Positions 124-21,498 of a stretch of DNA of 37,652 bases are shown here, piece after piece. The DNA is from a virus, in the IMG/VR virus record IMGVR_UViG_3300009481_000002, positions 1 through 37,652 of that record; one strand, written 5' to 3'. Both the position numbers and the translations under genes were made by a program. The notes under the pieces are model-generated. The model saw only the letters and a program-made list of their open reading frames with translations, made no database searches and was not told the DNA's origin. Each line of letters opens with the position of its first letter. Position 1 is the first letter of the stretch.

Positions 124-3100
124 GCTAGCTCATACATAACTTCTCTAGTGTCTTTAAAAGCTGCTTTACGTGCTTCGTCTTCCATACGCACAATATCAGC
201 AGGTGTTAAATCATACGTGCCGTCAGCTTTAGCGTAAGGCGCTGCGCTATCTATTAAATGCGTCCTATACCTAGATTCAAAAAATGGTCCTCTTGAAATA
301 TCATCTGCTGCGCCTGTGCCAAGATTTTGAAATGTTTTATCAATCAAATCACGTGTCCATTTTATAAAACCTTCTTGTTTTGCTGATGGTTGACTAATAG
401 AATCTCTAGCTTTACCAAACCCTCCACGTGAAGAGTTATCTTTTACACGAATTTGAGCAATAATTTCGTTAGCTTTACTACCATCAAATCCATGTCTAGC
501 TATAAACTCTGGATCAGTTAATGTCGATTTAACATCATCCCAACTAATTTCCTCACCTGCACGCACCTTGGCACGCAAATCAGGGAAATATTCAGGAGGA
601 AGAAAATCATTAACTTCATCAATAGCGTCTTCAGCTATTTCTTTAAATATTTTTCTATCAGCGCCTTTTCCTTCATAACCTTTTATTTGATACTTACGTT
701 GCAAACGAGGCGTGTTCTCAATTAAAGTAGCAATAGCTTCAACTTTTTGCACGTGAGACAAACTGTCATTATACATAATGTTATAAAATTGTATTTCTTT
801 AGTACCTGTACGTGACATCTGCATATAAGTACGTGTCCACGCTGTTCTCATTTGAGATGCAGTAACACCTTCTTTAAGAACATCAACAATTTCCCATCCT
901 TCACCTATGTTTTCATTTATTTGACGTTTAGCAGCAGCAACAGGTCCACGCATAGATGTGTCAAGACTATTAGCGCTAGATAACTGCCTTTGAGACATGC
1001 GTTGGAACCTTAAATCAGAACCCCACGCATTACCAAAAGTTGCGTTACCAATAGTTTGTCTAGGGTAACCAGCTTTTTCCCACCACATATCAGCTTGGTC
1101 AAATAAACTAACAACCTTATCTTTATCAGCCCAAGACAAACCAAAATTATATTCATCTTCAAGCCACGCTAAATCTTTTAACAACTGATCGCCACTAGAA
1201 CTTAAACGTTCAGCAAGTTCTATAACAGTTATATCATCTGCTGCTTCTCCTATTATACGTGCAGCGTCAATTTGAAACGCATTCGCTAATTGCGCTGCTG
1301 AACTTTTAACAGCATACTTTTGTAAATTCTTAGTACGGTTTTTCCAATATCTAAAACCCCAACCAGCCCCAAGCAAAGGATTAACCATACCCCCTACAAG
1401 CGCACGTGCAGTTATGCCAAGACCTTTTCTACGTGAAGGGCTTATTTTAGTAGCTTTTTCTTTAGCTTTTAAAGCGTCTTCTATATAACGAGCAGAAGCA
1501 CTATCCATAACAGCTTCTAAATTTAAACCTCGTTCTTCAACAAATTTAACTATATCTATTAGCGTCGCATCATTAGAAACTTTTGGCACGTCTTTACTTT
1601 TTGCAAAATTTTTATTTAATTCATTTCGCAACGCAACAGAAAAACCTTCATCAGTCAAATTCAAACCACGTGCCTGCATATTTTGAACCCAACGATTAAA
1701 CCCCTTGTTAAGCGTACCTAACATAGGTAGTACTCCCATGACAGCAGCAGCACGCAACTTTTCATCAGTTAACACACGCACAGTCCAACGAGGCGTTAAC
1801 AATTTACCAGCAGTCCAAACTTCCTGTAAACCTTTAGCAGCCACAGGAACTGCTTTAGCGTATTTGCTTCGTTTAAGATTTACTAACTTTCCTTCTTTTT
1901 GCGTCCCACGTTTACCGCCACCAAAATAATCAGTTCTATTCATTGATCTATTAATTTCACGTTGCAACAAATCAAATCTAGGAATAATAGAACATTCAGC
2001 TAACTGAGCTAAACTTAAATTATACGTATACGTATGTATACCTTCATTAACAGGAACGTTAGTATACGTATGCTCCTCAGTATACGCTTTACGTTCTGTT
2101 ACAAGTTGACCATCTTCATCGTATATACGTTTGCCACGCATCCCAGTTTCATCAACAGTGTACTTAGTTTCACTCATATCAATAGGTTTAAATTCTTTAT
2201 TATCTAACCTATTAAGAAAATCTTTTTGAGCGCCATTTAATTGCTTAACAAGATAGTCTTTAGGTATATCAACTAATGCGCCTGTATCGTCATAAATTTT
2301 AATATCTTGTTTACGCATCATGCCTTCAGCCCTGTAAACCAATTTGCTCATTGTTGCTGTGTAAAATTCAACAAACGTTGAGTAATCTTCACCTTTAAAA
2401 ACATATTCATTCCATTTGCCTAAAATTTCTACAGCTTCTTTTTCAGAAAGCAATCTTTTGCCACCAATAACAAATTCTGAAGCGTCTTCAATAACACGCT
2501 CAAACATAACCGTAGATTGCCCACCTAAATCAGTAAAATGGATTAAGCCTTGAGGCACACGGCTAGTAAATATTTTTAAAGCCTTTATTCCCAAAGGCAA
2601 AAACACAGACGGATTTGAATACGCCTTATCAAAAGTAGTAACAACAGTGTCATGATTAGACGTAAATTTATTGCCAGTAGTTTCTTTTACTTTATTTAAA
2701 TGATTCCTATGAACTACACCAATCGGTTGATAAATTTTTCTATTGCCAACAGATTTAACAATATTGTCAGCCAACAAAGCATCTTCAACAATTTTATCTA
2801 CAACAATTTGAGCAGTAATTCTATCTAAATTATCCCATTCATCAACTTGCGATTTAGGAAGCGACACATCGCCGTTAGCATCTAAAGTAACTTTCTTTTG
2901 TTGCGATACTTTAATCTGATTATAAAAATCAAAATGGTATTCCCAATGAACATCATTAAAAACTTGACCTTCAATTTTTAATTCCGCTTCTAACGCATCG
3001 TTTCTAACAGATTCTTCTCGAACAAAATTTTCATCTTTAACTCGTTCAACTTTTAAATCTTCTATTTCTTGTTTTAAAGCATTTATTTCTCTGGTATTAG

Positions 3101-4835
3101 CAGCACGCCTAGTTTTAAGAATACGCCGACGAGTATCATCTACAGATTCAATACCACCTTCAAACGAATCAGAAATTCTACGTGCTTGTTGTATTTCAAC
3201 AGGCAAAACTTCTGTAGAAATTAATTCACGTTTTTCTTGTAACTTTTCAATCCTATTTCTTAACGTAGATATTTTACCGTTAGTACCGTCAATACGTTTT
3301 CTTGCCCTAGTTATATCACGATCAACGTCATCTAATAATTTAATTCTTTTACCATAATCACTATCTATTAAAACAGCGCCAGCTTGCCTAATAACTTCTG
3401 CTATTTCACCCTTAACAGTTGTATCGCCTAAATACTCACGCAAAATTCTTTGAGCAGCAAGTTTACTAGGAGCAGTAGCTAACGCTGTCTGCACACGCTC
3501 AGGTAATTTAGTATTATTTTTCCTACCAGCAGCTTGTCTCCAACGAACACCACGTTCATTAATTAATGTTTGGTCAGCGTCAGTAGAAACAATTTTACTA
3601 GACTTATACTGTGCAGAAAATTTATTATCAGGAACAGCGTCCATAACCGTATTCCACGTGTCATTAAACCATTTGCTTTCAGCCATACCTTTAGCTTGTT
3701 CAGTTGTAACAGTTTTACGCAACGCTAAATCTTGTTCAGTTAAATTATTAGGCTTATTAAACCGATCTTTGACTTTAGAAACCATCCCTTGAGGAGGCGT
3801 TAAACTATCTGGTTTTTGAATCGCTGACGTTGTTATATCTTTATCGTAAACAATTTTACGAACATTGCCAGTTCCTTCAACAACCCATATTTTATTAGGC
3901 ATAGCTTGACGAACTGGTATAAACGGAACACCATAATCATATATTCTTACAAGATCTCCAGCGTCGTTTAACTTAACTATTGCCGTTTCACCACGTGATA
4001 TGTTTTTAGTTCCTCTAATAGCTCTTTCTAAAGGATCTTTCCATTCTTTAATTAAATCTGCTGTACCTGAAATAACAGTAAATAAATCGTTTGTTTTAAT
4101 AGCGTTATAAGCTTCTTCATCAAATGGATCTATTGCATATAAACCAGTAGCTAACGCTTGACCTGCTGAACGTTCTTGAACCCATGCAACATCGTATGCT
4201 TGTTTCCATTCGTTAGCGTCAAATAAAACACTGTACGTATTGTAATCAAGCAAATTTAAAGGGTTATTTCCTGCTGCGTCTTGCACTCTATTTATCATCG
4301 TAAATGTCATTGACAATGGATTATCTACTAAATTATTAAAAGCCCAATGCAAACCTTCTACGCCTTCTTGAACAGCAGGTCTTGTAACATCACGTATTTC
4401 TTCTGGAACTAAACCAAAAGTACCGCCACCTAAACCTTTAGAGGCAAACAATCCATAGCCAGATCCCATGCCTTCATTCTCAGGGTCAAGAGGTAAACCT
4501 AAGATATCACGTGCTATGTCTTCTCTACCGTATTGAATTATTGCAGCCAACGGATCTTCCCAAAGAGCTACCCTGTCGCCATTACCAAAAATTTGTCTTC
4601 CACTATCAAATAAAAGGTTTTTACCTATTACAACAACTGTGCCTCCAGCGCCACGAAAAAGATTAGTAGTGGCTACAAAAGGTCTAAGCGTTTGAGTAAC
4701 AGCACGTTCAGGTTGAAACAATGCCCCATAAATAGGAACACTTTTTGCTGCTTCTTGTATCGGATCAGGAATAATCTTGTCAACAAGATCTTGTGCGTCG
4801 CCTGCTTTGTCTTTAAGATAATCGTACAAGCCCAC
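1..4835 (-). CDS. Giant virion-associated protein, N-terminal ~1,611 codons. It is one 2,129-aa ORF that continues at 37529 down to 35975. Function is unknown; it is a putative internal or ejection protein.
   Basis: Manual reverse-complement translation from GTG 4835-4833 (first start after in-frame TAG at 4845-4847) reaches base 1 with no stop. The frame matches the ATG at 99-101 (= 37628-37630), since 4835-101 = 3x1578. The track lists no minus ORF here because the frame never closes inside the window. A long coiled-coil-like K/E/R-rich segment is encoded around 2990-3320. Confidence 0.8.
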   Translation of the reverse strand, partial: MGLYDYLKDKAGDAQDLVDKIIPDPIQEAAKSVPIYGALFQPERAVTQTLRPFVATTNLFRGAGGTVVVIGKNLLFDSGRQIFGNGDRVALWEDPLAAIIQYGREDIARDILGLPLDPENEGMGSGYGLFASKGLGGGTFGLVPEEIRDVTRPAVQEGVEGLHWAFNNLVDNPLSMTFTMINRVQDAAGNNPLNLLDYNTYSVLFDANEWKQAYDVAWVQERSAGQALATGLYAIDPFDEEAYNAIKTNDLFTVISGTADLIKEWKDPLERAIRGTKNISRGETAIVKLNDAGDLVRIYDYGVPFIPVRQAMPNKIWVVEGTGNVRKIVYDKDITTSAIQKPDSLTPPQGMVSKVKDRFNKPNNLTEQDLALRKTVTTEQAKGMAESKWFNDTWNTVMDAVPDNKFSAQYKSSKIVSTDADQTLINERGVRWRQAAGRKNNTKLPERVQTALATAPSKLAAQRILREYLGDTTVKGEIAEVIRQAGAVLIDSDYGKRIKLLDDVDRDITRARKRIDGTNGKISTLRNRIEKLQEKRELISTEVLPVEIQQARRISDSFEGGIESVDDTRRRILKTRRAANTREINALKQEIEDLKVERVKDENFVREESVRNDALEAELKIEGQVFNDVHWEYHFDFYNQIKVSQQKKVTLDANGDVSLPKSQVDEWDNLDRITAQIVVDKIVEDALLADNIVKSVGNRKIYQPIGVVHRNHLNKVKETTGNKFTSNHDTVVTTFDKAYSNPSVFLPLGIKALKIFTSRVPQGLIHFTDLGGQSTVMFERVIEDASEFVIGGKRLLSEKEAVEILGKWNEYVFKGEDYSTFVEFYTATMSKLVYRAEGMMRKQDIKIYDDTGALVDIPKDYLVKQLNGAQKDFLNRLDNKEFKPIDMSETKYTVDETGMRGKRIYDEDGQLVTERKAYTEEHTYTNVPVNEGIHTYTYNLSLAQLAECSIIPRFDLLQREINRSMNRTDYFGGGKRGTQKEGKLVNLKRSKYAKAVPVAAKGLQEVWTAGKLLTPRWTVRVLTDEKLRAAAVMGVLPMLGTLNKGFNRWVQNMQARGLNLTDEGFSVALRNELNKNFAKSKDVPKVSNDATLIDIVKFVEERGLNLEAVMDSASARYIEDALKAKEKATKISPSRRKGLGITARALVGGMVNPLLGAGWGFRYWKNRTKNLQKYAVKSSAAQLANAFQIDAARIIGEAADDITVIELAERLSSSGDQLLKDLAWLEDEYNFGLSWADKDKVVSLFDQADMWWEKAGYPRQTIGNATFGNAWGSDLRFQRMSQRQLSSANSLDTSMRGPVAAAKRQINENIGEGWEIVDVLKEGVTASQMRTAWTRTYMQMSRTGTKEIQFYNIMYNDSLSHVQKVEAIATLIENTPRLQRKYQIKGYEGKGADRKIFKEIAEDAIDEVNDFLPPEYFPDLRAKVRAGEEISWDDVKSTLTDPEFIARHGFDGSKANEIIAQIRVKDNSSRGGFGKARDSISQPSAKQEGFIKWTRDLIDKTFQNLGTGAADDISRGPFFESRYRTHLIDSAAPYAKADGTYDLTPADIVRMEDEARKAAFKDTREVMYELAEHSEFAEMVGFMSPFFNAWQEVIGRWAGLAIENPAFVYKG

Positions 4836-4836
4836 G

Positions 4837-5205
4837 TTACGAACCTAGTTCTTCTATAGGTCCAATCGCTACACGCATCTCACGAACTATTTGCCTCAAC
4901 TCTGGTGAAGCATCTCGTTGAGAAGCCATTTTTTCTAAAACAGGCAATGAAGTCAACATTTGAAATTTACGTGTTGCCGATATTGGCCTACTCGCAGGTC
5001 TTGTCGATTGAGAAGTTAACACAGATTCGTTGCGTCGTTCTGTCGGCCTATTAAAAGGAACTTCACCAGCTTTCATAGCAACTCTAGGAGGTTCTTCCAT
5101 CCGTGGCAAAGGAACAACAGCTTGCGCTTCACGTTGCTCTTTAACTTTACCATACTGTTGGTCAGCAACAGTTTGTATTTTTTGTCCTTTACCTTTTCTA
5201 GGCAT
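4837..5205 (-). CDS. Hypothetical protein (122 aa) between portal and giant ORF
   Basis: Track ORF. Its ATG overlaps the portal stop as TAATG (5203-5207). Its own stop lies 1 nt before the giant ORF GTG. Confidence 0.6.
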   Translation of the reverse strand: MPRKGKGQKIQTVADQQYGKVKEQREAQAVVPLPRMEEPPRVAMKAGEVPFNRPTERRNESVLTSQSTRPASRPISATRKFQMLTSLPVLEKMASQRDASPELRQIVREMRVAIGPIEELGS

Positions 5206-8892: not shown

Positions 8893-9159
8893 CTACCATT
8901 TAACTTTATTAGCCCAATACGCAGCAGACATCTTACCTTTTTTAATGTTCTTCGCATGACGGGCTTTAAACGACCTAGACCTAGCAGTATTACCCTTATC
9001 ACCAGTTTTACCCTGCTGCCCAAATCGAATAGTTTTAATTTGATTACCTTCTTTAGCCACAACAACATGCGACTTTGTTTTATGCTTAGGAGTACGCTTT
9101 GGCTTATTATATCCAGATACGCCAGCTCTAGCTAAACGAGGATCTTTCTTAGAAGGCAT
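8893..9159 (-). CDS. Ultrabasic small protein (88 aa)
   Basis: Track ORF. Hand count gives 25 K/R against 3 D/E. The stop TAG abuts the terL ATG, and the ATG overlaps the upstream stop as TAATG. Confidence 0.7.
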   Translation of the reverse strand: MPSKKDPRLARAGVSGYNKPKRTPKHKTKSHVVVAKEGNQIKTIRFGQQGKTGDKGNTARSRSFKARHAKNIKKGKMSAAYWANKVKW

Positions 9160-9227
9160 TACTTCTTACGCTTCTTCGGCTTACGTTTCTTCTTAGCCTT
9201 CATAGGCTTACCATAACCATACGCCAT
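9159..9227 (-). CDS. Ultrabasic mini-ORF (22 aa, MAYGYGKPMKAKKKRKPKKRKK)
   Basis: Found by hand, below the track size cut-off. The ATG at 9227-9225 overlaps the upstream TAA, and its own TAA overlaps the downstream ATG (TAATG at both ends). 12 of 22 residues are K/R. Confidence 0.4.
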   Translation of the reverse strand: MAYGYGKPMKAKKKRKPKKRKK

Positions 9228-9418
9228 TAAAACCGTCCCCGTGCTTTCTTCATACGGCGATGGTTAGCTCTTCGCCTAGCACGACCATAACTAGCTTCTT
9301 GCGCTTTAATAGTATTACGGTACGCAGCGTCAACCGACCCAGCGCCTAAAGTAACTTTACGCTTTTTCTTATTTATATTTCTTTTAATTTTATTTATACC
9401 AATTTCATTTATACCCAT
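9227..9418 (-). CDS. Ultrabasic small protein (63 aa from ATG 9418; the track gives a TTG start at 9436)
   Basis: Track ORF. ATG 9418 is preceded by GAGGG. Hand count gives 20 K/R against 3 D/E. Confidence 0.55.
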   Translation of the reverse strand: MGINEIGINKIKRNINKKKRKVTLGAGSVDAAYRNTIKAQEASYGRARRRANHRRMKKARGRF

Positions 9419-9426
9419 AACGCCCT

Positions 9427-9525
9427 CTACTGACAACTCTCACAATACTCAGGATTCTCTAACCCACACTCTAGCACCTCATCGTCCTCCACGTCCCACA
9501 CCTCATCAAAATCTTCAAAAAACAC
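9427..9525 (-). CDS. Acidic mini-ORF (32 aa, M-FFEDFDEVWDVEDDEVLECGLENPEYCESCQ), first ORF of the leftward arm
   Basis: Found by hand. A GTG start at 9525 lies 5 nt after AAGGAG. 13 of 32 residues are D/E, there is no K/R, and it carries a C-x7-C-x2-C pattern. Confidence 0.35.
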   Translation of the reverse strand: MFFEDFDEVWDVEDDEVLECGLENPEYCESCQ

Positions 9526-9787: not shown

Positions 9788-9791
9788 GGAT

Positions 9792-9899
9792 CCCACGCCC
9801 AAAACACAACAACCCAACACCAAAAAACAAACACCCCAAACACACAACAAAAAAACCCCCACAACACACAAACAACTGAACCAAAACAACCAACAAACC
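9792..9899 (+). repeat. C/A-only low-complexity tract (G/T-only on the other strand)
   Basis: Of 108 nt, only three are not C or A (g9797, t9877, g9878). 9798-9876 is 79 nt of pure C/A. Confidence 0.95.
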
Positions 9900-9939
9900 G
9901 CTAATAACTCAAGGATATGGGGGGTACCAAGGCAATCTG

Positions 9940-9953
9940 TTAGGTATGCCTAA
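9940..9953. promoter_or_regulatory. Palindromic 14-mer TTAGGTATGCCTAA, copy 1
   Basis: TTAGG/CCTAA arms with a TATG centre. It recurs 69 bp downstream. Confidence 0.4.
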
Positions 9954-10008
9954 CACTTATTGTAAGGCCAGGCTGATAGGGGGTGTCAATCAAACAGAAC
10001 ACCCAGTA

Positions 10009-10022
10009 TTAGGTATGCTTAA
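10009..10022. promoter_or_regulatory. Palindromic 14-mer TTAGGTATGCTTAA, copy 2
   Basis: 13 of 14 bases match copy 1. Each copy lies 14-15 nt (copy 1) or 26 nt (copy 2) downstream of a GGGGGT run (9919-9925 and 9978-9983). Confidence 0.4.
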
Positions 10023-10170
10023 TGTGTGGTTTGAAAGCGAACGTTTGTTCGATGTTGCCCTGTAGTGGCCCTAGGATGCGTCCTAAGGACTGTTATACGT
10101 TCGCCGGTACTGTTACCCATGTTGGAGCTATAAACGCCTTAGCTGTATAACGTTCGTTATGTTACAGAAA

Positions 10171-10179: not shown

Positions 10180-10495
10180 GTTGTTGGGTGACTGGCATTG
10201 ATCTTCAATCTGTGTATGTAATTGAAGTAGCTTCTCAGTTTAGAAACCGACTCTGAGATAAGCCCTGAGGAAGGGGGAGCGAATAGGAAGGACAGGGCGA
10301 CCATAGACCCCGACACAAGAGTTCTTCCAAAAGGTTGAAAGTCCCCAAATTGGTCACACCTTTTAAACCGGTATTGAACGGGAATTAGCGGAAAGACCCT
10401 AGGCTACTAGGACAACTACCGAGGCGAGATGACTTAACCGACACCTATCGGGATACTACTGATGGAGGCCGTATGGCCCTAAGGGTAAATTAGAA

Positions 10496-10565
10496 TCTTT
10501 CTTTCCTTCTCTACGGATACCGTACTGACGAGGCTCCCAGACTGGAGCTAGAAAGAAAGGAAAGA
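10496..10565 (+). promoter_or_regulatory. Leader structure that sequesters the SD of the first early gene
   Basis: Pyrimidine arm TCTTTCTTTCCTT (10496-10508) pairs with purine arm AAGGAAAGAAAGA read 3'-5' (10553-10565): 11 Watson-Crick pairs, 1 G-U, 1 mismatch. It encloses the hairpins TACGG-ATA-CCGTA (10512-10524) and GCTCC-CAGACT-GGAGC (10533-10548). Confidence 0.4.
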
Positions 10566-10566
10566 C

Positions 10567-10773
10567 ATGGAAGAACTAGAGCGCAAAGCCAGAGCAAGAG
10601 CAAAGGCAAGAGCTAAGAATCAAAGGGCGTTAGCTATCCGATATAGCCAGATAACGCACCGTTCAACGGTTGCACCGGCTCCCAGAGTTCACAACCGGCA
10701 TACCGTGTGGACACTTCAGACAGTCGGCAAGACTGACACGATTCCAAACTGGGCCGGAAAAATCCGGTGGTAG
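10567..10773 (+). CDS. Hypothetical early protein (68 aa, basic, RAKA repeats)
   Basis: Track ORF. The ATG is preceded by AGAAAGAAAGGAAAGAC. Confidence 0.6.
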   Translation: MEELERKARARAKARAKNQRALAIRYSQITHRSTVAPAPRVHNRHTVWTLQTVGKTDTIPNWAGKIRW

Positions 10774-10837
10774 TGCTTAGGGCATCCGCAAGGGTGCCCG
10801 TAGTAGTATCACCTGATACTAGAAAGAAGGAAGAATA
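10774..10837 (+). repeat. Two-hairpin intergenic module U0
   Basis: Hairpin 1 is GGGCATCC-GCAA-GGGTGCCC (10780-10799). Hairpin 2 is AGTATC-ACCT-GATACT (10805-10820). AGAAAGAAGG and the ATG follow. Confidence 0.8.
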
Positions 10838-11077
10838 ATGAGTGAAAAATTCACTATTGAGATAGAGCCGGATTATTTATCTACTGGAGCGCATGTTGCC
10901 AGCCGGATATTAGAGGCACGGCCCGACAATATGACCGTCGCTGCTTGGCGTGCGATTGTGGTTACATTCGCTGACCATATCCGCTACCTAGCTTTTAAAG
11001 CTGCGGATGCTCCCGAAGGTGAACTAAGTGATTATCATAAGCTTATGGTTCACTTGGATACGTACCTACCTCGCTAG
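10838..11077 (+). CDS. Hypothetical early protein (79 aa)
   Basis: Track ORF with the extended SD AGAAAGAAGG. Confidence 0.7.
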   Translation: MSEKFTIEIEPDYLSTGAHVASRILEARPDNMTVAAWRAIVVTFADHIRYLAFKAADAPEGELSDYHKLMVHLDTYLPR

Positions 11078-11143
11078 GTTGTGCTTTGAGCATTAGAAAT
11101 AGTGCTCTTAGTAGTGCTTAGCGCACTGGAAAGAAGGAAAATA
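11078..11143 (+). repeat. Two-hairpin intergenic module U1
   Basis: It has the GTTGTGCTTTG box. Hairpin 1 is GAGCAT...GTGCTC (11088-11107). Hairpin 2 is AGTGC-TTAGC-GCACT (11113-11127). GGAAAGAAGG follows. Confidence 0.8.
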
Positions 11144-11326
11144 ATGAAATACAGCGTATGGTATGGCATAGATGGATGTTTACCTGAACAAGAGTATCCA
11201 CTATTTGAATCAAATAACTATCGTGAATGTAAATCATTCATAACTAACGAACGTAAAGAGTTTATCGCAGAGTTTGGTAAACCATCCAAATATAATTTGT
11301 ACGATTGGTACATTCACGAACACTAG
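11144..11326 (+). CDS. Hypothetical early protein (60 aa from ATG 11144)
   Basis: The track ORF 11102..11326 starts at an alternative codon inside module U1. ATG 11144 has the conserved SD spacing. Confidence 0.65.
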   Translation: MKYSVWYGIDGCLPEQEYPLFESNNYRECKSFITNERKEFIAEFGKPSKYNLYDWYIHEH

Positions 11327-11393
11327 GTTGTAGGTTGAGCATTGGAGACAGTGCTTTTCCTAGTGCCTAGTGGCACGGAAAGAAGGAAAAGAT
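11327..11393 (+). repeat. Two-hairpin intergenic module U2
   Basis: It has the GTTGTAGGTTG box. Hairpin 1 is AGCATT...AGTGCT (11338-11355). Hairpin 2 is GTGCC-TAGT-GGCAC (11363-11376). GGAAAGAAGG follows. Confidence 0.8.
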
Positions 11394-11729
11394 ATGCTTA
11401 ATTGGTATAACAAAGAAGTAGACCTCGACCGTTGGCGTAGAGGTGATCGGTATTATCACTGGTGTGACGCATTCAACGACAGCGAAGACCCTTGTGAAGA
11501 ATTTGGGAACATGCACTGGGACTTATGTACCAAGTGCATTAAGCTCCCTGACTTGTATGATCGGTTAGACTTTGAGCATCACAAACAATACAAAAACACT
11601 AAAGGTAGCCATATTGATGGACCTTGTGCTAGACCTGAATACTATTGGAAGTATGATAGCTACACGGGTGACGCTGAACCAAGCGGAGAGTATCTGTGCG
11701 ACGTGTGCAAGATAGTCTTGAATCACTAA
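11394..11729 (+). CDS. Cys/His-rich early protein (111 aa from ATG 11394)
   Basis: Track ORF trimmed to the SD-supported ATG. It contains several C-x2-C-like pairs (CTKC, CDVC). Confidence 0.65.
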   Translation: MLNWYNKEVDLDRWRRGDRYYHWCDAFNDSEDPCEEFGNMHWDLCTKCIKLPDLYDRLDFEHHKQYKNTKGSHIDGPCARPEYYWKYDSYTGDAEPSGEYLCDVCKIVLNH

Positions 11730-11795
11730 GTTGTGCTTTGGACATTCGTGAGAGTGTCCTTAGTAGTGCTTAGTGCACTGGAAAGAAGGAAGATA
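11730..11795 (+). repeat. Two-hairpin intergenic module U3
   Basis: It has the GTTGTGCTTTG box. Hairpin 1 is GGACAT...GTGTCC (11740-11759). Hairpin 2 is AGTGC-TTAGT-GCACT (11765-11779). Confidence 0.8.
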
Positions 11796-12083
11796 ATGTC
11801 AGAAAGAATAACTACACAAGATTTAGAGCGTCAAGTAGAAGTGTTAAACGGTTACTTTGGTATTCGGGATAGCAATGCTGTAGGACGCTTTGAAATTGAG
11901 TATGCCTATGGTGATTGCCGATTAGTACGAATTCTTAATGAAGGCAATGGCGAACGTGATATGTCTAAACGTGGTACTAAGCGTGAGATATACGAAAAAC
12001 TTTACGCCATTAACAAAGTCATTTACGAATTTAAGGATGACTTTGGAATAGCAGTAGACAAAGTAGACCGGCTTAACGCTTAA
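11796..12083 (+). CDS. Hypothetical early protein (95 aa from ATG 11796)
   Basis: Track ORF trimmed to the SD-supported ATG. Confidence 0.65.
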   Translation: MSERITTQDLERQVEVLNGYFGIRDSNAVGRFEIEYAYGDCRLVRILNEGNGERDMSKRGTKREIYEKLYAINKVIYEFKDDFGIAVDKVDRLNA

Positions 12084-12157
12084 CGCTGCTAAGTTGTGGG
12101 TTGAGCATCAGCGATGGTGCTTTTCCCAGTGCTTAGCACTAGAAAGAAGGGAAAGAT
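12084..12157 (+). repeat. Two-hairpin intergenic module U4
   Basis: It has the GTTGTGGGTTG box. Hairpin 1 is AGCATC...GGTGCT (12104-12121). Hairpin 2 is AGTGC-TTA-GCACT (12128-12140). Confidence 0.8.
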
Positions 12158-12439
12158 ATGAATCGAAAAGAAATCGAACAAATAATGATGACATCAGAAG
12201 TCACAGCCCTGCACCAATTATGGGACAAGATGCTACAACTCATTGAAGATGCAGTACCTCAACAGGGTAAGTGGACTTTTACAAGAACCAATTACAATGG
12301 TCACCGCATAACATTTACGTTTGAGAGAGATCAAATCATTGAGCAAATTTTTAGCGATAGCCTTGACCGCTGGTCTGATCTTAAAGTCATTACGGAAGAT
12401 ATGACATCTTTAGAAATTGTAAATTTTATTAACCAATAG
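12158..12439 (+). CDS. Hypothetical early protein (93 aa)
   Basis: Track ORF with the extended SD. Confidence 0.7.
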   Translation: MNRKEIEQIMMTSEVTALHQLWDKMLQLIEDAVPQQGKWTFTRTNYNGHRITFTFERDQIIEQIFSDSLDRWSDLKVITEDMTSLEIVNFINQ

Positions 12440-12509
12440 GTTGTGCTTTGGACATTGGAAACAGTGTCTTTAGTAGTGCCTAATGGGGCGCTAGAAAGAA
12501 GGAAAAGAT
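12440..12509 (+). repeat. Two-hairpin intergenic module U5
   Basis: It has the GTTGTGCTTTG box. Hairpin 1 is GACATT...AGTGTC (12451-12468). Hairpin 2 is AGTGCC-TAATGG-GGCGCT with one G-U pair (12475-12492). Confidence 0.8.
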
Positions 12510-12821
12510 ATGAGTTATTTAGACAACTTTGACTTTGACCAAATCACTAATTGGGATTTGAAACAAGTCAATCAAACTGTCCAACATGCAGTTAAAATAG
12601 CGTTACCGTTTCTGCTTGCAGAACTTGAACCGCATATAGGTTTCATGATTAAAGAGCAGATTAAAGACTGTGACGACGATGCTGAAGTGGATATTGATAC
12701 AGCCAAGAGCGCTCTTAAGGAGTGCCTTAATGAGGGTTGGGTTGATGAAGAAATAGAATCACGCATTGATTCTGTTATTAATAATGGTAGCTGGGACTTT
12801 GATATAAGTTTCTCGGCCTAA
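12510..12821 (+). CDS. Acidic hypothetical early protein (103 aa)
   Basis: Track ORF with the extended SD. Confidence 0.7.
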   Translation: MSYLDNFDFDQITNWDLKQVNQTVQHAVKIALPFLLAELEPHIGFMIKEQIKDCDDDAEVDIDTAKSALKECLNEGWVDEEIESRIDSVINNGSWDFDISFSA

Positions 12822-14168: not shown

Positions 14169-14564
14169 ATGACAATTAGTTATGAGCAATACGCTAAAGA
14201 CGTATTTGAAACTGCTATTGAAGGCGGTATTGATTATTGGGCTGACATCCACGAGTGGGTATCTGATGATGAGGGTCGTGCTTGGTACGCCAAGGTGACC
14301 GTCAAAGACGATTACTATGAAGATGGTGCTGGTTCTGTGATTGATTGGTGGACCATCATGGCTGGGACACAACGTCTCGTGACACAACCTATGAAACTTC
14401 AAGTTGCTGCTAGTGAAGCTGGTTCTTTAATCAGCGACGTTATTGGAGTTCTAATAAAAGCAGCAGAGACAGACGACTATGAGAAATTTCTCAACATGTA
14501 CGATGTCGAATGGGCAGATATTATTGTCCAGTACGGGTTGTTTGGAGAGCTTGTCTTCGGATAA
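14169..14564 (+). CDS. Hypothetical protein (131 aa)
   Basis: Track ORF with the SD AAAGAAAGGAAAG. Confidence 0.7.
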   Translation: MTISYEQYAKDVFETAIEGGIDYWADIHEWVSDDEGRAWYAKVTVKDDYYEDGAGSVIDWWTIMAGTQRLVTQPMKLQVAASEAGSLISDVIGVLIKAAETDDYEKFLNMYDVEWADIIVQYGLFGELVFG

Positions 14565-14575
14565 GCTATTCATTG

Positions 14576-14620
14576 CCCCCCATACGGGTTTGGTCCTTCT
14601 TTCCCTGTATGGGGGGTTTA
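14576..14620 (+). terminator. Intrinsic-terminator-like hairpin upstream of whiB
   Basis: CCCCCCATACGGG (14576-14588) pairs with CCCTGTATGGGGGG (14603-14616), giving 13 bp including one G-U. TTTA follows. Confidence 0.65.
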
Positions 14621-14639
14621 CCTGTACTAAAATAGAAAG

Positions 14640-14870
14640 ATGGACTGGAGAGAGAAAGCTGGCTGTCGTGGCATGACTACGATATTCTATTCGGACCAGC
14701 ATCGTAAGTGTAGATTCATTTGCGATTCTTGTCCTGTGTTTGAACAGTGTATTGCTACGTCTGTTGAGGATGAGCCAGACCCTTTCCAACTCTGGGGTTT
14801 CAGACATGGGATGACTGCATCAGAGCGTCATCGTTGGCGTATGATGAAGGCCCGACTTGACAGCGTGTGA
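14640..14870 (+). CDS. whiB: WhiB-family Fe-S transcription factor (76 aa)
   Basis: It has four Cys in the WhiB pattern (AGCRG ... C-DS-C-PVFEQ-C), an LWGFRHG turn resembling G[VI]WGG, and a basic C-terminal tail. Confidence 0.8.
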   Translation: MDWREKAGCRGMTTIFYSDQHRKCRFICDSCPVFEQCIATSVEDEPDPFQLWGFRHGMTASERHRWRMMKARLDSV

Positions 14871-14914
14871 TACCCTGTTAAAAAGGATTTAACAAAAAAA
14901 GAAAGGAGGAAGCC

Positions 14915-15202
14915 ATGAATAAAGGCGAGATCAAAGCAATCTCTGAAGGAGTCGCTAAGACTTTCAAGAAGAATGCAAGATACGGAGCCTACCCATCCAT
15001 TCAATCTGTTCTGGATTCAATCGAATGCGAATTGGTTGAGCAAGGACACATGAGAATGTGGGGGGATAGGTCTAAGGTCCGCTTTGAATATAACGGCGAG
15101 TTCGGTGAAGAATACATCGGCGAAGTCGATAATTCAATGGACATTTGGGAAGCTCACATATTCCAAGCCGAAGGCGGTGGGGAGATAATTGCTAACCAAT
15201 AA
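14915..15202 (+). CDS. Hypothetical protein (95 aa)
   Basis: Track ORF with the SD GAAAGGAGGAAG. Confidence 0.7.
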   Translation: MNKGEIKAISEGVAKTFKKNARYGAYPSIQSVLDSIECELVEQGHMRMWGDRSKVRFEYNGEFGEEYIGEVDNSMDIWEAHIFQAEGGGEIIANQ

Positions 15203-15222
15203 CAAATAAGAAAGAAGGAAAC

Positions 15223-15393
15223 ATGGACTTTGATTTCTCACCAGAGAAACCTAAAAGGCGTAAAGCTGCATATAAAAAACCTGACTCTTGGGTTAGGTGT
15301 TTAGATTGCAGAGCGATTTACGCTGACAGGATAAGTAAGAATTATCCTACTTGTAAGTTCTGTAACGGAGCTAACTGGTCGAACGATGTTTGA
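15223..15393 (+). CDS. Zinc-ribbon mini-protein (56 aa)
   Basis: Found by hand. Its sequence is MDFDFSPEKPKRRKAAYKKPDSWVRCLDCRAIYADRISKNYPTCKFCNGANWSNDV, with CxxC...CxxC. The SD is AGAAAGAAGGAAAC. Confidence 0.55.
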   Translation: MDFDFSPEKPKRRKAAYKKPDSWVRCLDCRAIYADRISKNYPTCKFCNGANWSNDV

Positions 15394-15441
15394 CATCTGA
15401 TGACAGTGTGCTACAATTATAGTAATCCCAGAAAGGAAGGC

Positions 15442-15693
15442 ATGACACTTTACAAAGATATGCAATACCATCCGGCTTTCACAAACAAGCCTGTAAGGTT
15501 AGCACTCACCGATGATAGTAAAGTATTAATTACTTACGACACCGGCGAAGTGTACCCATACGATTGGTCTGTTGAAATGAACACAGACGAAGCATCGTTA
15601 TTGCATTACCTACTAACCCAATTTCTTTTCGATGACCTCGTACTTAATCAGGGTATGCCCAAAGATTATTACGGGTCAGAAGAAGACGAATAA
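15442..15693 (+). CDS. Hypothetical protein (83 aa from ATG 15442)
   Basis: Track ORF 15400..15693 trimmed to the ATG that follows GAAAGGAAGGC. Confidence 0.6.
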   Translation: MTLYKDMQYHPAFTNKPVRLALTDDSKVLITYDTGEVYPYDWSVEMNTDEASLLHYLLTQFLFDDLVLNQGMPKDYYGSEEDE

Positions 15694-15722
15694 CATTTAT
15701 AAACATAAGGAAGGATATTAAT

Positions 15723-15854
15723 ATGCCAAAAATTACATTACTTGGGTTCACTCCAGAAGAAGAAACGGAGAACCCTCACCTCAAGCAACTTTACGATGTA
15801 GTTGATGCTATCAATGAGGGCTATAAAAGAGAATACGGTGACGATGATGAGTGA
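15723..15854 (+). CDS. Hypothetical acidic mini-protein (43 aa)
   Basis: Found by hand. The SD is AAGGAAGGA. Its stop overlaps the next ATGATG start. Confidence 0.4.
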   Translation: MPKITLLGFTPEEETENPHLKQLYDVVDAINEGYKREYGDDDE

Positions 15855-16266
15855 CCCTCGCAACTGCGATGTGTGTCCGACTTGTCGTCGCCCATTCAGG
15901 GCGCTTCAATTATATGAACGTGCGAGATCAGGAAACCCTGACTCGTTAGAGCATGAAGCAGCAAAGGAACTGAAAGACGCAGGGCTAAGATGCAAACAAG
16001 TCTTAGACTTTCTACGCTGGGAAAAGCATAACGCTTTGACCAGATCACATAGGGCAAGCTACGTCGGCAACGACGGGTTTGTTAGTGGAGAGGATATGAG
16101 ATTAAGTCTTGGCTCTGGCGATTGGCAGCGACGTGTCAGGCAACTGTCTGAGGAGTACGGCGTTCCGATAGAAAGAAAAATGGATAACCCCAACGGTGGC
16201 AGGAAGGTAGCTTATTACCGGCTTGCTGATGGATGGGACTACGAAGGAGATACAGAATATGTCTGA
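15844..16266 (+). CDS. Hypothetical protein with an N-terminal CxxCxxC cluster and a possible C-terminal winged-helix (140 aa from ATG 15844)
   Basis: Track ORF 15802..16266 trimmed. The N-terminus contains CDVCPTC. The C-terminal stretch RRVRQLSEEYGVPI...VAYYRL resembles wHTH segments. Confidence 0.55.
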   Translation: MMSDPRNCDVCPTCRRPFRALQLYERARSGNPDSLEHEAAKELKDAGLRCKQVLDFLRWEKHNALTRSHRASYVGNDGFVSGEDMRLSLGSGDWQRRVRQLSEEYGVPIERKMDNPNGGRKVAYYRLADGWDYEGDTEYV

Positions 16267-16411
16267 TGAATATATAGATTACTTAGTGTACGAGCGTCGT
16301 ATGGAGCGAGCGTTCGGCAAAGAATTTACGGCCAGCAGAAAGCTGTCACCCATAGCAAACAAGGACTTCGAGGGTACGCCCGACGAAGGCGAGATTGTTA
16401 AGGATAGTTAA
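16259..16411 (+). CDS. Hypothetical protein (50 aa from ATG 16259)
   Basis: Track ORF 16223..16411 trimmed to the ATG after GGAGA. It overlaps the upstream stop. Confidence 0.45.
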   Translation: MSDEYIDYLVYERRMERAFGKEFTASRKLSPIANKDFEGTPDEGEIVKDS

Positions 16412-17296
16412 GTGGAATACACTAGCGATATAGAGCAGGCTTACGGCAGGTTCTTACAAGGAAACAGAGAGGTCAAGGAAACAGCGTGCGGTACCCTGAG
16501 TAGGGTGTCTGACTCTGGGGCGTGTCTCCGTCAGCGAGGCTTCAACGCTTTGCAGACAGAGGAATGCCACACCATAGACACGACAACCCTGTTAGCGTTC
16601 GAGCTAGGCACACACATGCACAACGTAGTGCAAGAAGCATGTGCAGACCAGTTTGAAGGAGAGTACGAGACAGCAATAGATCTGTCCTACTCAGGTGTTA
16701 GTCTTAGCGGTAGCTGCGATGGTTTAATTAAAGTCAATGACCAATACAGGTTGTTAGAAATAAAAACCATGAGTCCGTTTGGGTATTCCCTCTGTAAAAA
16801 GTCAGGGGTTCCTAAGCGAGAACACATTGTGCAAGCCAGCTTGTATGCCAAAGGCATGATAGAAGCAGGCAAACAAGTAGACGCTGTGTACCTAGTGTAC
16901 ATAGCTAAAGGCGATGACTTCCGTAGCAAAACAAAAGCAGGAGACATCATGGAATGGGTAATCCCGTTAGATTTTTTTATCTACGAGTACAACATGTCGC
17001 CAATGCAATTAGCTGACGCTGAACTAGAACTGTTCCGCTCTGTCCAATACGATCTTAGCTCCGACAAGCTCCCAGATGCCGTAGTATTTGACGACGATGG
17101 ACTTGACCAGCTAATAGAAAGCCCTAGCCCCTACGGTGTGCCTCATAAGGGAGGCTACTGGGGGTGTAGGTATTGTAGATTTAATGAGCTGTGCCAAATG
17201 GTAGGACCAACCGATGTGTCTTTATCTACAGCCCGTTATCATGAATCATTATTGAAAGGAGATAATGATGACATCCCAGTTAACGAAGTTAGCTAA
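16412..17296 (+). CDS. Cas4/RecB-like PD-(D/E)XK exonuclease with a Cys cluster (294 aa)
   Basis: It has D...LLEIK (D-x-ExK), a QASLY (QxxxY) motif, one N-terminal Cys region, and a C-terminal CRYCRFNELC as in Cas4 Fe-S nucleases. Confidence 0.65.
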   Translation: MEYTSDIEQAYGRFLQGNREVKETACGTLSRVSDSGACLRQRGFNALQTEECHTIDTTTLLAFELGTHMHNVVQEACADQFEGEYETAIDLSYSGVSLSGSCDGLIKVNDQYRLLEIKTMSPFGYSLCKKSGVPKREHIVQASLYAKGMIEAGKQVDAVYLVYIAKGDDFRSKTKAGDIMEWVIPLDFFIYEYNMSPMQLADAELELFRSVQYDLSSDKLPDAVVFDDDGLDQLIESPSPYGVPHKGGYWGCRYCRFNELCQMVGPTDVSLSTARYHESLLKGDNDDIPVNEVS

Positions 17297-18831: not shown

Positions 18832-18998
18832 TCAATCCAAACACCTATCATGTGGCAAATGAACGACCCTACGGTAAGCCAGATACCGTACTCCCTAGTC
18901 TCACCAGACAATGTAATAAGCACAATGCCTGTTGAACCAGCAGTAAGAGACAAAGCAAAAATTTCCTTTGTTACTCTTTTAACTCTACGCTTTATCAT
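18816..18998 (-). CDS. Small two-TM membrane protein (60 aa from ATG 18998; the track gives GTG at 19031)
   Basis: Track ORF. It has a basic N-terminus followed by two hydrophobic segments. Confidence 0.45.
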   Translation of the reverse strand: MIKRRVKRVTKEIFALSLTAGSTGIVLITLSGETREYGIWLTVGSFICHMIGVWIDWKDE

Positions 18999-20709
18999 CT
19001 TTCGCTTTTCTCCTTGGCGCTTCGGGACCACTGGGAGCAGCAGCTTGCGGACTGCTAGGTCGAGGTGTAGGTGTAGGTGTAGGTCTTGGTGTCGGTGGAG
19101 GTGTAGGTCGAGGTGTAGGTCTAGCTACCGCTGCTCCAGTCGCTATTGTAGCAACCGTCGTGACAGCAATCACTACCCGACGATCCTCAACAGTAATCGT
19201 TGAATCCTCAGCGACGTAAGTTTCAAGACCCCCAGCGTACACGTTAACTTCTTCTTCTAACTCAGCTTTAACCTCGTCAGAAGCGTCATTAAATATTTCT
19301 GGAGCTGCCTCAAAAAGCTCCTCTACCTGTTCCTCAGATGCTTCCTCAAAAAACTCTTCGTTATCTTCTAAGATCTCTTCAAGAATTTCTTCAACGTTCT
19401 CTTCATCTTGTAATATTTCAAAAAGAATTTCGTCGTCCAACTCATCTATATCCAACTCCTCGAAATCAACTTCTTCAATGTCCTCAAATTCTTCAAGGAC
19501 AAATTCAATATCTTCTTCCTCTGATTCTAGAACATCTGCCTCATCCAAGTTGGCATCTTCTTCTTCGTCTCGCTCCACCAATTCTTCAAATTGTGGTTCA
19601 GGTTCATTAACCAGATCTTCAAATTCTTCTTCTTCAAATTCCAATTCATCTTCTTCAAACTCCTCGTCTATAAATTCTTCTTCTATTTCAGGTAACTCAT
19701 CAAAATCAAAATCGTAATCTTCCCAATCTACTTCCTCCAGATCAACCCAGATGCTATCATCATCGTATGGGTATCCTTCTTCTTCCTCTGGTTCTATTAT
19801 CAATACTGGTGGTTGCCACTCTTCTGGCTCTTGGGGTTCATATTCCAATTCTGGCAATTCTTCTGGTGGTGTGGGTAGTTCCTCTGGCTCTTCTGGGGTT
19901 GGCGGTAGTGTGGGTTGTGGTTCGGGCGAACTTTCAGGAGAAGGTTCGGGGACATCATCTTCGACAGTGGGAACAGGAGTGGGGTCGATTTGAGGACTAG
20001 GATCAGGTTCAGGCGTTGGCGTAGGCGTTGGCTCGACTTCTTCCTCAGACGTAGGCGTTGGCTCAGGTTCAAGAGTTGGTGTCGGCTCAGGTTCAGGCGT
20101 TGGCGTAGGCGTAGGAGTCGGCTCAACAGTAGGAGTTGGTTCAGGGGTTGGCGTAGGTTCTGGAGTAGGTGTCGGGTCAACAGTTGGAGTAGGCTCTGGT
20201 TCTGAACCATCTAAACTCCACGAACCGCCGGACAATTCCATTGTGTACGTTCCTATATGTTCGTCATCGTAAGCGTCAGCTCTAAGCTGATACGTACCTA
20301 TGTCTAGGGTGGGTGTTAATTGGCTATCCCAGCACATGTTACTCCCATCGTTATGAGGCGCAGAGTCGTCATCATCCGCAACCAGAGTCAATGTTCCTTC
20401 ACTATTAACGCTATATAACCAGATGTGAGGATCGGCAGCGTAGGCATGAGGCGCATTGTCCCAATCATCGCAGGTCATAGACGTAAAAGTAATAGCATTT
20501 ATCGGAGTTTGATCTTCAGTTATTTCCAACGTGAACGTAGGCCCAGCCTCAAATTCATTAACCCACACGGTGCAACGCAACAAATTATCTTCTTCATCCT
20601 CGACACAGGTCGTAACGTTCTGTTCTTGCGCTCCGACAGGCGAAATAAACGCCATGATAAGCATAGAAGCAAACAGTATTCGTGACAGCACAAAGAAAAA
20701 ACGGGCCAT
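18985..20709 (-). CDS. Secreted, C-terminally anchored protein (574 aa). In order it has a signal peptide, a Cys-containing globular domain, a PT-rich linker, a ~210-aa polyacidic region, a TM helix and a Pro/Arg-rich tail.
   Basis: The N-terminus is MARFFFVLSRILFASMLIMAFISPVGA-QEQ. Residues 169-300 are P/T/E repeats. Residues 301-510 hold about 102 D/E and only 3 K/R by hand count. RRVVIAVTTVATIATGAAVA is hydrophobic, and the tail runs RPTPRPTPPPTPRP...RRKAKDDKA. Confidence 0.7.
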   Translation of the reverse strand: MARFFFVLSRILFASMLIMAFISPVGAQEQNVTTCVEDEEDNLLRCTVWVNEFEAGPTFTLEITEDQTPINAITFTSMTCDDWDNAPHAYAADPHIWLYSVNSEGTLTLVADDDDSAPHNDGSNMCWDSQLTPTLDIGTYQLRADAYDDEHIGTYTMELSGGSWSLDGSEPEPTPTVDPTPTPEPTPTPEPTPTVEPTPTPTPTPEPEPTPTLEPEPTPTSEEEVEPTPTPTPEPDPSPQIDPTPVPTVEDDVPEPSPESSPEPQPTLPPTPEEPEELPTPPEELPELEYEPQEPEEWQPPVLIIEPEEEEGYPYDDDSIWVDLEEVDWEDYDFDFDELPEIEEEFIDEEFEEDELEFEEEEFEDLVNEPEPQFEELVERDEEEDANLDEADVLESEEEDIEFVLEEFEDIEEVDFEELDIDELDDEILFEILQDEENVEEILEEILEDNEEFFEEASEEQVEELFEAAPEIFNDASDEVKAELEEEVNVYAGGLETYVAEDSTITVEDRRVVIAVTTVATIATGAAVARPTPRPTPPPTPRPTPTPTPRPSSPQAAAPSGPEAPRRKAKDDKA

Positions 20710-21490: not shown

Positions 21491-21498
21491 ATACCATT

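Follow-up and report, generated by a model that had tools for sequence, protein, structure and literature searches.

Predicted bistable RNA hairpins between the first early genes of an uncultured marine phage are candidate intercistronic processing sites

Introduction

Why are the first seven genes of a phage early operon separated, at each of their six junctions, by copies of one structured element? The question is raised by IMG/VR record IMGVR_UViG_3300009481_000002, the whole of which (37,652 nucleotides, hereafter the window) was analysed here. This phage contig is circular and ~37.5 kb long; its ends overlap by 123 nt (1-123 and 37530-37652). Its structural genes (terminase, portal, capsid, tail fibres and a frame of ~2,100 codons that spans the contig junction) lie on the minus strand, and a block of small plus-strand open reading frames (ORFs) begins at 10567, preceded by ~1.1 kb of noncoding DNA. 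An earlier reading of the letters alone (the original prediction) had described a module of two short hairpins repeated between the first of these ORFs, and had offered as analogues the RNase III processing hairpins of phage T7, the promoter-stem-loop (PeSL) cassettes of T4-type phages, and homology patches for cassette exchange.

Here we computed the structure of the modules, how it covaries, which strand it favours and how far it is kept in different sequence types, together with the points at module edges where homology breaks. Each module was found to form one long RNA hairpin that shares nucleotides with a second, mutually exclusive hairpin at its 3′ base. Our favoured reading, held with moderate confidence and at about an even chance of being right, is that the modules are RNase III-type intercistronic processing sites in a polycistronic early mRNA.

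Results

Six homologous modules fill every gap between the first seven early genes

Six homologous modules of ~70-76 nt occupy all six gaps between the first seven early ORFs. Each runs on the plus strand from a stop codon through a Shine-Dalgarno sequence to the next ATG:

10771-10840, plus strand: module M1
11075-11146, plus strand: module M2
11324-11396, plus strand: module M3
11727-11798, plus strand: module M4
12081/12090-12160, plus strand: module M5
12437-12512, plus strand: module M6

M2-M6 make up one direct-repeat family, and M1 is a divergent copy that can still be aligned with them. A covariance model of the 41-nt core, run over the window with filters off, matched exactly these six places (55-65 bits, E 1e-12 to 2e-15), the next-best match scoring 13.9 bits, which confirms the number and placement of copies first described. 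The compensatory stem changes reported with them proved real and more extensive than claimed: over 12 pairs, 72/72 cells were paired and 6 pairs had changed on both sides, a result reached by 0/500 shuffles. The recurring AGAAAGAAGG Shine-Dalgarno sequence was likewise found as described.

The module is a long hairpin overlapped by a second one

When the last codons of the upstream gene were included, the minimum free energy (MFE) fold given by RNAfold for the sense-strand RNA was a single three-tier hairpin of ~20 bp. In the layout designated type A, an 8-bp helix (P1) is followed by a 2x2 internal loop, a 4-bp helix (P2), a second 2x2 loop and an 8-bp helix (P3) that ends in a tetraloop. The 5′ strand of P1 runs from the last sense codon through the stop codon into GU. 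Hairpin 1 had been drawn as a 5-bp stem with a ~10-nt loop; it is actually the 8-bp P3, which contains a conserved U.G pair and is capped by a GNRA tetraloop (GCAA, GAAA, GAGA, GUGA, GCGA and GAAA in M1 to M6, in that order). The GTTGTGNNTTG box and the linker had been taken for spacers. They are instead the two strands of further helices: the variable NN of the box (CU or GG) covaries with the linker (AG or CC), giving the combinations GCU-AGU and AGG or GGG-CCU or CCC.

Hairpin 2 exists as originally proposed and covaries across types (UAGUAUC/GAUACUA, GUGCC/GGCAC, GAUGC/GCAUC, GAUGUUC/GAACAUC), but it has nucleotides in common with the outer helix P1. Its 5′ arm and loop are built from the 3′ strands of P2 and P1, so that hairpin 2 and the long hairpin are mutually exclusive. 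In most copies only 0-1 nt separate its end from the Shine-Dalgarno sequence. With the 5′ strands of P1 and P2 blocked, as by a ribosome on the stop codon, the predicted MFE structure is P3 plus hairpin 2. The mean unpaired probability from the Shine-Dalgarno sequence to the AUG was equal whether or not a ribosome occupied the upstream stop codon, and translation-controlled occlusion of the Shine-Dalgarno sequence was rejected because accessibility is the same in both conformations. The parts of the six modules are as follows:

10766-10813, plus strand: M1 long hairpin, with P1 GGUGGUA/UAUCACC including the ORF1 stop codon (10771-10773) and P2 UGCU/AGUA; covariance model score 55.3 bits
10780-10799, plus strand: M1 P3, GGGCAUCC-GCAA-GGGUGCCC
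10804-10840, plus strand: M1 hairpin 2 (UAGUAUC-ACCU-GAUACUA, 10804-10821), Shine-Dalgarno GAAAGAAGG (10822-10830) and ATG (10838)
11072-11123, plus strand: M2 long hairpin, with P1 11072-11079/11116-11123 (stop codon TAG at 11075) and P2 11082-11085/11110-11113; -26.8 kcal/mol
11088-11107, plus strand: M2 P3, GAAA loop
11112-11146, plus strand: M2 hairpin 2 (11112-11128), Shine-Dalgarno (11129-11137) and ATG (11144)
11321-11372, plus strand: M3 long hairpin, with P1 CACUAGGU/GCCUAGUG (stop codon TAG at 11324), P2 UAGG/CCUA and P3 11337-11356 (GAGA loop); -30.4 kcal/mol
11363-11396, plus strand: M3 hairpin 2 (GUGCC-UAGU-GGCAC, 11363-11376), Shine-Dalgarno (11378-11386) and ATG (11394)
11724-11775, plus strand: M4 long hairpin, with stop codon TAA at 11727 and P3 11740-11759 (GUGA loop); -27.8 kcal/mol
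11764-11798, plus strand: M4 hairpin 2 (11764-11780), Shine-Dalgarno (11781-11789) and ATG (11796)
12087-12138, plus strand: M5 long hairpin, with P2 UGGG/CCCA and P3 12103-12122 (GCGA loop)
12128-12160, plus strand: M5 hairpin 2 (AGUGC-UUA-GCACU, 12128-12140), Shine-Dalgarno (12142-12150) and ATG (12158)
12434-12485, plus strand: M6 long hairpin, with stop codon TAG at 12437, one A.A mismatch in P1 and P3 12450-12469 (GAAA loop)
12474-12512, plus strand: M6 hairpin 2 (UAGUGCCU-AAUG-GGGCGCUA, 12474-12493), Shine-Dalgarno (12494-12502) and ATG (12510)

The two entries for the start of M5 arise from the module's own TAA at 12090 and the true stop codon of the ORF at 12081, which lie in the same frame with 6 nt between them. 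M6 is the exception to the general fold, the two-hairpin form being its MFE structure. In the copy of M1 found in the related locus L076, P1 differs in sequence yet stays complementary (CUUGUGG/CCACAAG).

The same plan recurs in four sequence types

Relatives were gathered from terminase-anchored loci and from a metagenome scan with the pattern of the operon leader. A total of 125 module instances were counted in 30 loci, among which are several duplicate fetches of one contig: 43 of type A, 11 of A1, 65 of B, 4 of C and 2 of D. In type A (29 distinct copies), 96.4% of the 580 cells were paired and 9/20 pairs carried compensatory changes; none of 500 shuffles reached the observed pairing, and slid controls gave 28-52%. 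Pairing extends into the stop codon, whose third base (TAG or TAA) faced its P1 partner in these copies as G-C in 14, A-U in 12, G.U in 2 and otherwise in 1.

Type B (CUCGGAGCACAUC-loop-GGUGUGCUCUAGGAUGC...; 53 distinct copies) differs from type A in sequence and follows the same plan, with a P1 of 6 bp, a P2 of 5 bp, a P3 of 10-11 bp and a hairpin 2 that overlaps the basal strands. Its outer helices were 88% paired against 21-47% for slid controls, and at one outer pair C-G, present in 24 copies, is exchanged for G-C in 19. The internal loops are 2x2 (UU/UU and UG/GU) in type A and 1x1 (C/A) in type B. The rarer types C and D form multi-tier hairpins of 24-26 bp, the 3′ base of which overlaps hairpin 2. 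Both the long hairpin and hairpin 2 thus recur among these relatives.

When the covariance model was run against 79 loci anchored on the terminase protein (TerL), matches were obtained only in L004, L007 and L076 and none in more distant relatives, and pattern scans of IMG/VR found modules in only ~8 contigs, all of one lineage. An Rfam search of the module region at E<=10 returned chance matches only (CRISPR-DR41, osmY). The modules are rich in TAG. Stop codons in all three frames were present in 24/30 type A copies (shuffle mean 6.5, maximum 13) and in 24/53 type B copies (shuffle mean 14.3).

Structure is selected in the sense-strand RNA

The original prediction had left it open whether the structure acts in RNA or in single-stranded DNA. 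Several pairs are kept as U.G, which would be C.A on the opposite strand. The tetraloops are those of stable RNA hairpins in most copies: GNRA in 30/30 of type A, and GNRA in 32/53 and UUCG in 5/53 of type B. The mean folding energy of the sense strand was -26.5 kcal/mol against -14.3 kcal/mol for the antisense strand in type A, and -25.3 against -12.3 kcal/mol in type B, the sense strand being lower (by ~12 kcal/mol) in 83/83 copies tested. Conserved G.U pairs, GNRA and UUCG tetraloops and the preference for the sense strand together strongly support the conclusion that structure is the selected trait and that it acts in sense-strand RNA, which narrows the earlier proposal to one of its two alternatives. 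The diversity of type B loops indicates selection for stability and not for one recognised loop sequence.

The modules carry no promoter or terminator pattern

A scan of the modules found no hairpin-plus-U-tract sites, in agreement with the earlier remark that no U-tract follows the hairpins; the stem-loop is present, but without a U-tract or a terminator pattern. Terminator-like matches on the plus strand fall at 9938 and at 14211-16968, with none in 10766-12510, and are no more numerous than in shuffles. A sigma-70 promoter was rejected as well, since no module contains a hexamer pair and type B lacks the TTG of the apparent -35. The proposed likeness to PeSL cassettes fails at the promoter. 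Those elements combine a strong sigma-70-like early promoter (-35, -10 and an AT-rich upstream region) with a terminator stem-loop and act on transcription (PMC2839356). They resemble the modules in containing a stem-loop that recurs between small orphan early ORFs and at which indels and replacements have their breakpoints, whereas no promoter or terminator pattern was found in the modules and the structure selected in them is a long RNA helix.

Modules coincide with the seams of exchanged cassettes

Comparison of gene content between relatives, also suggested earlier as a check, showed that ORF families follow one another between modules in a mosaic order and that colinear homology blocks shared with the window start and stop at module edges. 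For example, the block shared with L007 ends at 11145 and resumes at 11323. M3 is 100% identical over 66-70 nt in L076 and L179, where it is joined directly to ORF5; the ORF5 gene is carried by ordinary metagenome assemblies. For M5 the identity is 98.7% in L186, whose flanking ORFs have no match in the window, and 98.6% in L178. Because homology blocks between relatives break at module edges, these comparisons support the view that the modules also act as cassette-swap seams between related phages. Exchange of cassettes at homology patches, the third analogue offered in the original prediction, is therefore borne out as to where exchange occurs, but the seam role seems to follow from the repeated ~75-bp homology without being the selected function. 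The repeated ~75-bp connectors would be places where recombination adds, removes or replaces cassettes, and the exonuclease and single-stranded DNA-binding protein (SSB) of the phage could take part.

The operon leader resembles a type III hammerhead

Upstream of the first module lie a structured leader and the first early gene:

10505-10559, plus strand: leader with type III hammerhead-like fold; stem III 5′ strand 10505-10510, C17 at 10511, predicted cut between 10511 and 10512
10512-10549, plus strand: stem I (10512-10524), core CUGACGA (10525-10531) and stem II (10532-10549) of the leader fold
10550-10559, plus strand: extra A (10550), GAA (10551-10553) and stem III 3′ strand (10554-10559), the last being the ORF1 Shine-Dalgarno sequence
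10567-10773, plus strand: ORF1, the first early gene, a 68-aa arginine/lysine-rich orphan (MEELERKARARAKARAK...)

The leader contains CUGANGA, GAA, A15.1-U16.1 and H17 in type III order together with three stems. Across 25 distinct variants the core is invariant except at N7 (C or U), and stems I and II covary (96% of cells paired, 5 pairs changed on both sides). A search with a hammerhead descriptor gave one match in the window and none in 200 shuffles. The leader departs from the canonical junction by one extra A between stem II and G12 in all copies, stem III has a competitor in a slipped alternative pairing of 9 bp, and RF00008 scores the leader at 13.5 bits, below the gathering score of 48.5. 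When the leader model was run over the window and 80 other loci, only the window matched, and none of the canonical ribozymes of Rfam was found in 13 distant loci. From its sequence, the leader looks like a type III hammerhead ribozyme. RNA processing as a theme of the early operon is supported by this likeness, though not proven. With stem III formed by the ORF1 ribosome-binding site, the leader would also be a separate, putative case of ribozyme-controlled translation.

A noncoding stretch of ~280 nt directly upstream (~10230-10500, plus strand) is partly conserved among relatives, includes the block GGGTTGAAAGTCCCCAAA and has small covarying hairpins near 10440-10480. It gave no Rfam match, its folding energy is not unusual, and an early promoter could not be recognised. 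If the hammerhead cuts, this stretch would be released as a separate RNA.

The last codons and stop codon of ORF1 form the P1 5′ strand of M1. The protein had no match in PHROGs, Pfam, NCBIfam or PDB. In relatives it occurs in several alternative basic versions, which track module type A or B.

Genome and relatives

No cultured relative was found by DNA search or by TerL protein search. The relatives of the phage are uncultured marine contigs (IMG/VR, Tara Oceans), and TerL relatives in genome collections lie on contigs of metagenome-assembled genomes scattered over four phyla. The only DNA match to cultured phages is at 9010-9152 (~75% identity to Roseobacter phages CRP-5 and CRP-345), and very basic small ORFs lie at 8893-9436 on the minus strand, directly upstream of the terminase gene.

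The phage genes include a Cas4/RecB-like exonuclease and an SSB, and among the window ORFs scanned none was recognised as a phage RNA polymerase, RNase III or integrase. A near-consensus sigma-70 promoter at 15390-15417 (plus strand; TTGACA, 16-nt spacer, TGcTACAAT) lies within the early/middle block, is kept in relatives and suggests use of host RNA polymerase. A second conserved TTGACA block lies near 14890. No tRNAs were found in the window, and an Rfam search of the whole window had no match at the gathering score.

Several further features of the genome were observed. At 9790-9900 and 9938-10030, the 1.1-kb noncoding region contains a C/A-rich low-complexity tract and two copies of TTAGGTATGC(C/T)TAA, one of them within a 7-bp palindrome, and may be a genome end or origin region. 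A reading frame of 2,132 uninterrupted codons spans the contig junction (35978-37652 joined to 3-4844, minus strand), with no Pfam match and a weak match to a PHROG of unknown function. A 12-nt periodic repeat (GGTGTAGGTGTA...) at 19046-19141 lies inside a 574-aa minus-strand ORF (18985-20709) that has no family match. At 20732-23421 (minus strand), a 252-aa ORF whose domain is RNase H-like / PolB-exonuclease-like adjoins a 640-aa ORF of PHROG 11667 (unknown function), and the pair may be a split or divergent DNA polymerase.

Discussion

A model for processing by RNase III

In the RNase III model, each module would be a cis-acting standard connector between the gene cassettes of the early mRNA. 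The ~20-bp irregular hairpin (P1-P2-P3), which begins at the upstream stop codon and spans about two turns of double-stranded RNA with near-central loops, would present the shape of an RNase III substrate; the first internal loop below P3 sits near the helix centre in types A and B. What all four sequence types have in common is such an interrupted double-stranded RNA of about two turns. Host RNase III would cut on the 3′ side, in or close to the internal loop between P3 and P2, leaving an upstream message that ends in the stable P3 (8-10 bp, GNRA or UUCG tetraloop), which would block 3′ exonucleases. The released 3′ strands of P2 and P1, together with the next few bases, would refold as hairpin 2 at 0-4 nt from the new 5′ end and there, before the always-open Shine-Dalgarno sequence, would shield the downstream message from 5′-end-dependent decay. 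A ribosome on the upstream stop codon is predicted to lead to the same state of P3 plus hairpin 2. Each cassette would in this way become a unit with its own stability and its own translation. We infer the enzyme (RNase III), the place of the cut and the stabilising effects, and the model is the sole one we found with a role for both mutually exclusive helices.

The placement and hairpin form of the RNase III sites of T7 are well established. The T7/T3 early-mRNA signals (R0.3, R0.5, R1, R1.1 and R1.3) are, like the modules, repeated and similar irregular hairpins of about two turns with internal loops, and they too follow a stop codon and precede the next ribosome-binding site of an early operon transcribed by host RNA polymerase. 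The modules likewise lie between co-directional cistrons on the plus strand, with no promoter or terminator pattern between them, and form irregular hairpins of ~20-22 bp (8+4+8 bp with two 2x2 loops in type A, 6+5+10 bp with 1x1 loops in type B). The original analogy with T7 is more plausible than when it was made, because the true helix is ~20 bp long and interrupted; the 5-bp stems on which it was based would be too short. An ideal substrate of the E. coli enzyme has 22 bp (PMC3867540). Internal loops restrict RNase III to single-strand cuts that leave stabilising 3′ hairpins, and T7 early mRNA has five such signals, all intercistronic (PMC3867540). The products expected from the modules would similarly bear a protective 3′ hairpin (PMC3867540).

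There are also differences. The modules have no sequence relationship to the T7/T3 signals, and cleavage in them is only predicted. They are near-symmetric (8-2-4-2-8), stable tetraloops are obligatory in them, and the basal helix incorporates a stop codon. They occur once per junction of a hypervariable cassette block, and carry a conserved alternative hairpin 2 that overlaps the basal helix. We know of no description of such an overlapping 3′ hairpin for T7 sites.

Several points weigh against the RNase III model. Two internal loops interrupt the helix, and its longest continuous stem is 8 bp in type A and 11 bp in type B. A passive role, as an exonuclease barrier or folding insulator, would likewise select a stable P3, and hairpin 2 might have been selected for a reason unrelated to cleavage. 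The modules are confined to the first ~2 kb of the operon, and the model leaves the module-free later junctions unexplained.

Alternative explanations

The modules could be passive insulators or stabilisers that need no dedicated endonuclease, stopping 3′-to-5′ exonucleases at each junction and keeping coding sequence off the next ribosome-binding site, which would make the expression of any cassette predictable. The great stability of the GNRA- or UUCG-capped P3 agrees with this, as do a Shine-Dalgarno sequence that is open in every predicted state, the stop codons in all three frames of 24/30 type A copies, and the highly mosaic cassettes. P3 alone would be sufficient for such a role, however, so that the ~12 further covarying base pairs of P1 and P2 have no explanation, and neither do the recurrence of a ~20-bp total length in four sequence types and the position of hairpin 2 exactly at the 3′ base of the long helix. 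We regard this explanation as unlikely, while giving it real weight.

Binding of a phage protein, most obviously ORF1, to the modules for lambda N-like antitermination or for regulation of translation or stability is less probable again. ORF1 is small, arginine-rich and first in the operon, as an N-like antiterminator would be, and has no detectable homology; it starts with an arginine-rich helix-like stretch (MEELERKARARAKARAKNQRALAIRY), its variants track module type (the MEEYERKLRKARRDRE form with type B, other forms with type A), and hairpin 1 has GNRA loops, as boxB does. The loops of type B are variable (UUCG, UCCC, GACA and others), which argues for loop stability and not recognition. 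L004 has both module types but one ORF1, the protein is without a family or solved-structure match, and its correlation with module type can be explained by linkage, the end of ORF1 being part of M1. No conserved boxA was found and no terminators are predicted downstream. The lambda nut site (boxA and boxB, bound by N) shares with the modules a GNRA-type hairpin in early transcripts and a small, arginine-rich first early gene. The modules differ from it in having a stem of 8-10 bp within a 20-bp helix in place of one of 5 bp, a variable loop and at least 6 copies per operon. The reading of the module as a nut site is weakened by stems of 8-11 bp, freely varying loops and the lack of a conserved boxA or of terminators to be overridden. 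A GCUCUUA-like string is present in some copies only, within the P3 stem.

A function at the level of DNA, with the modules existing in order to shuffle cassettes, either as attC-like sites that fold as single strands or as homology patches used by the recombination proteins of the phage, we consider very improbable. The homology breakpoints at module edges, the near-identity of M5 in L186 between unmatched neighbouring ORFs, the direct joining of M3 to ORF5 in L076 and L179, and the Cas4/RecB-like exonuclease and SSB of the phage are all in keeping with it. Homology exchange, however, needs similarity and no hairpin, and would leave the compensatory changes, G.U pairs, RNA tetraloops and 12 kcal/mol asymmetry unexplained. 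Integron attC sites are, like the modules, structured, sequence-variable palindromic elements at every cassette junction, but they are folded single-stranded DNA with R and L core boxes used by an integrase, whereas the modules are RNA-like and sense-specific. No attC core sites (GTTRRRY/RYYYAAC) and no integrase were found. The identity was rejected because GTTGTGC does not fit GTTRRRY, no inverse core is present, the fold relies on G.U pairs and loses 12 kcal/mol on the opposite strand, and the scanned ORFs include no integrase.

A further reading of the module, as a self-cleaving ribozyme of a new kind or as a promoter or terminator, is barely credible: the hammerhead-like leader hints that the operon may use ribozymes, and promoter and terminator analogues were plausible at first reading, but types A and B have no common conserved unpaired core and differ in their internal loops, no Rfam ribozyme matched even at E<=10, and neither sigma-70 hexamer pairs nor hairpin-plus-U-tract sites occur in the modules.

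Related strategies and significance

Cutting of long phage transcripts at gene junctions has been proposed before. Phage hammerheads flanking genes were proposed to cut long transcripts into gene-length mRNAs, and haloviruses HF1 and HF2 have a leader hammerhead just upstream of the first early gene (PMC3088659). The modules resemble these clustered prophage and HF1/HF2 hammerheads as junction RNA elements that would cut a long phage transcript, in an operon whose own leader is hammerhead-like. Unlike them, the modules have no hammerhead or other known ribozyme core and would need a protein nuclease.

The functional logic of RiboJ and of RNase or Csy4 sites placed between cistrons is well established. 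Such synthetic insulators (RiboJ being a hammerhead plus hairpin) cut context away and leave a hairpin by an exposed ribosome-binding site, as the modules are predicted to do; they are engineered, whereas the modules would be a putative natural counterpart. We raise tentatively, as a possibility short of probable, that the early operon is a natural plug-and-play system for insulated expression, made up of the leader hammerhead and of bistable connectors that double as recombination seams for the exchange of cassettes. The leader hammerhead would cut off the 5′ untranslated region and free the first ribosome-binding site, which is the ribozyme's own stem III. The long form of the connector, with the stop codon inside it, would be the substrate of a double-stranded-RNA nuclease, and the short form (P3 plus hairpin 2) would arise either from cleavage or from a terminating ribosome. 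Since the stop codon lies in the long form and the short form goes with a terminating ribosome, mRNA processing in such a system would sense translation of the upstream cassette.

Phage intercistronic processing or stabilising hairpins are a known kind of element; the modules would belong to this kind, with an unusual bistable design and strong comparative support. They would make up a well-defined RNA family absent from Rfam, which comprises over 80 distinct copies in four sequence types and is unusual in having two mutually exclusive helices that both covary. If the RNase III model is right, an abundant group of uncultured marine phages would have solved a problem for which synthetic biology uses RiboJ and RNase sites between cistrons, the expression of arbitrary and often exchanged genes of one operon without influence from their neighbours, and the architecture of mRNA processing would be linked directly to modular genome evolution.

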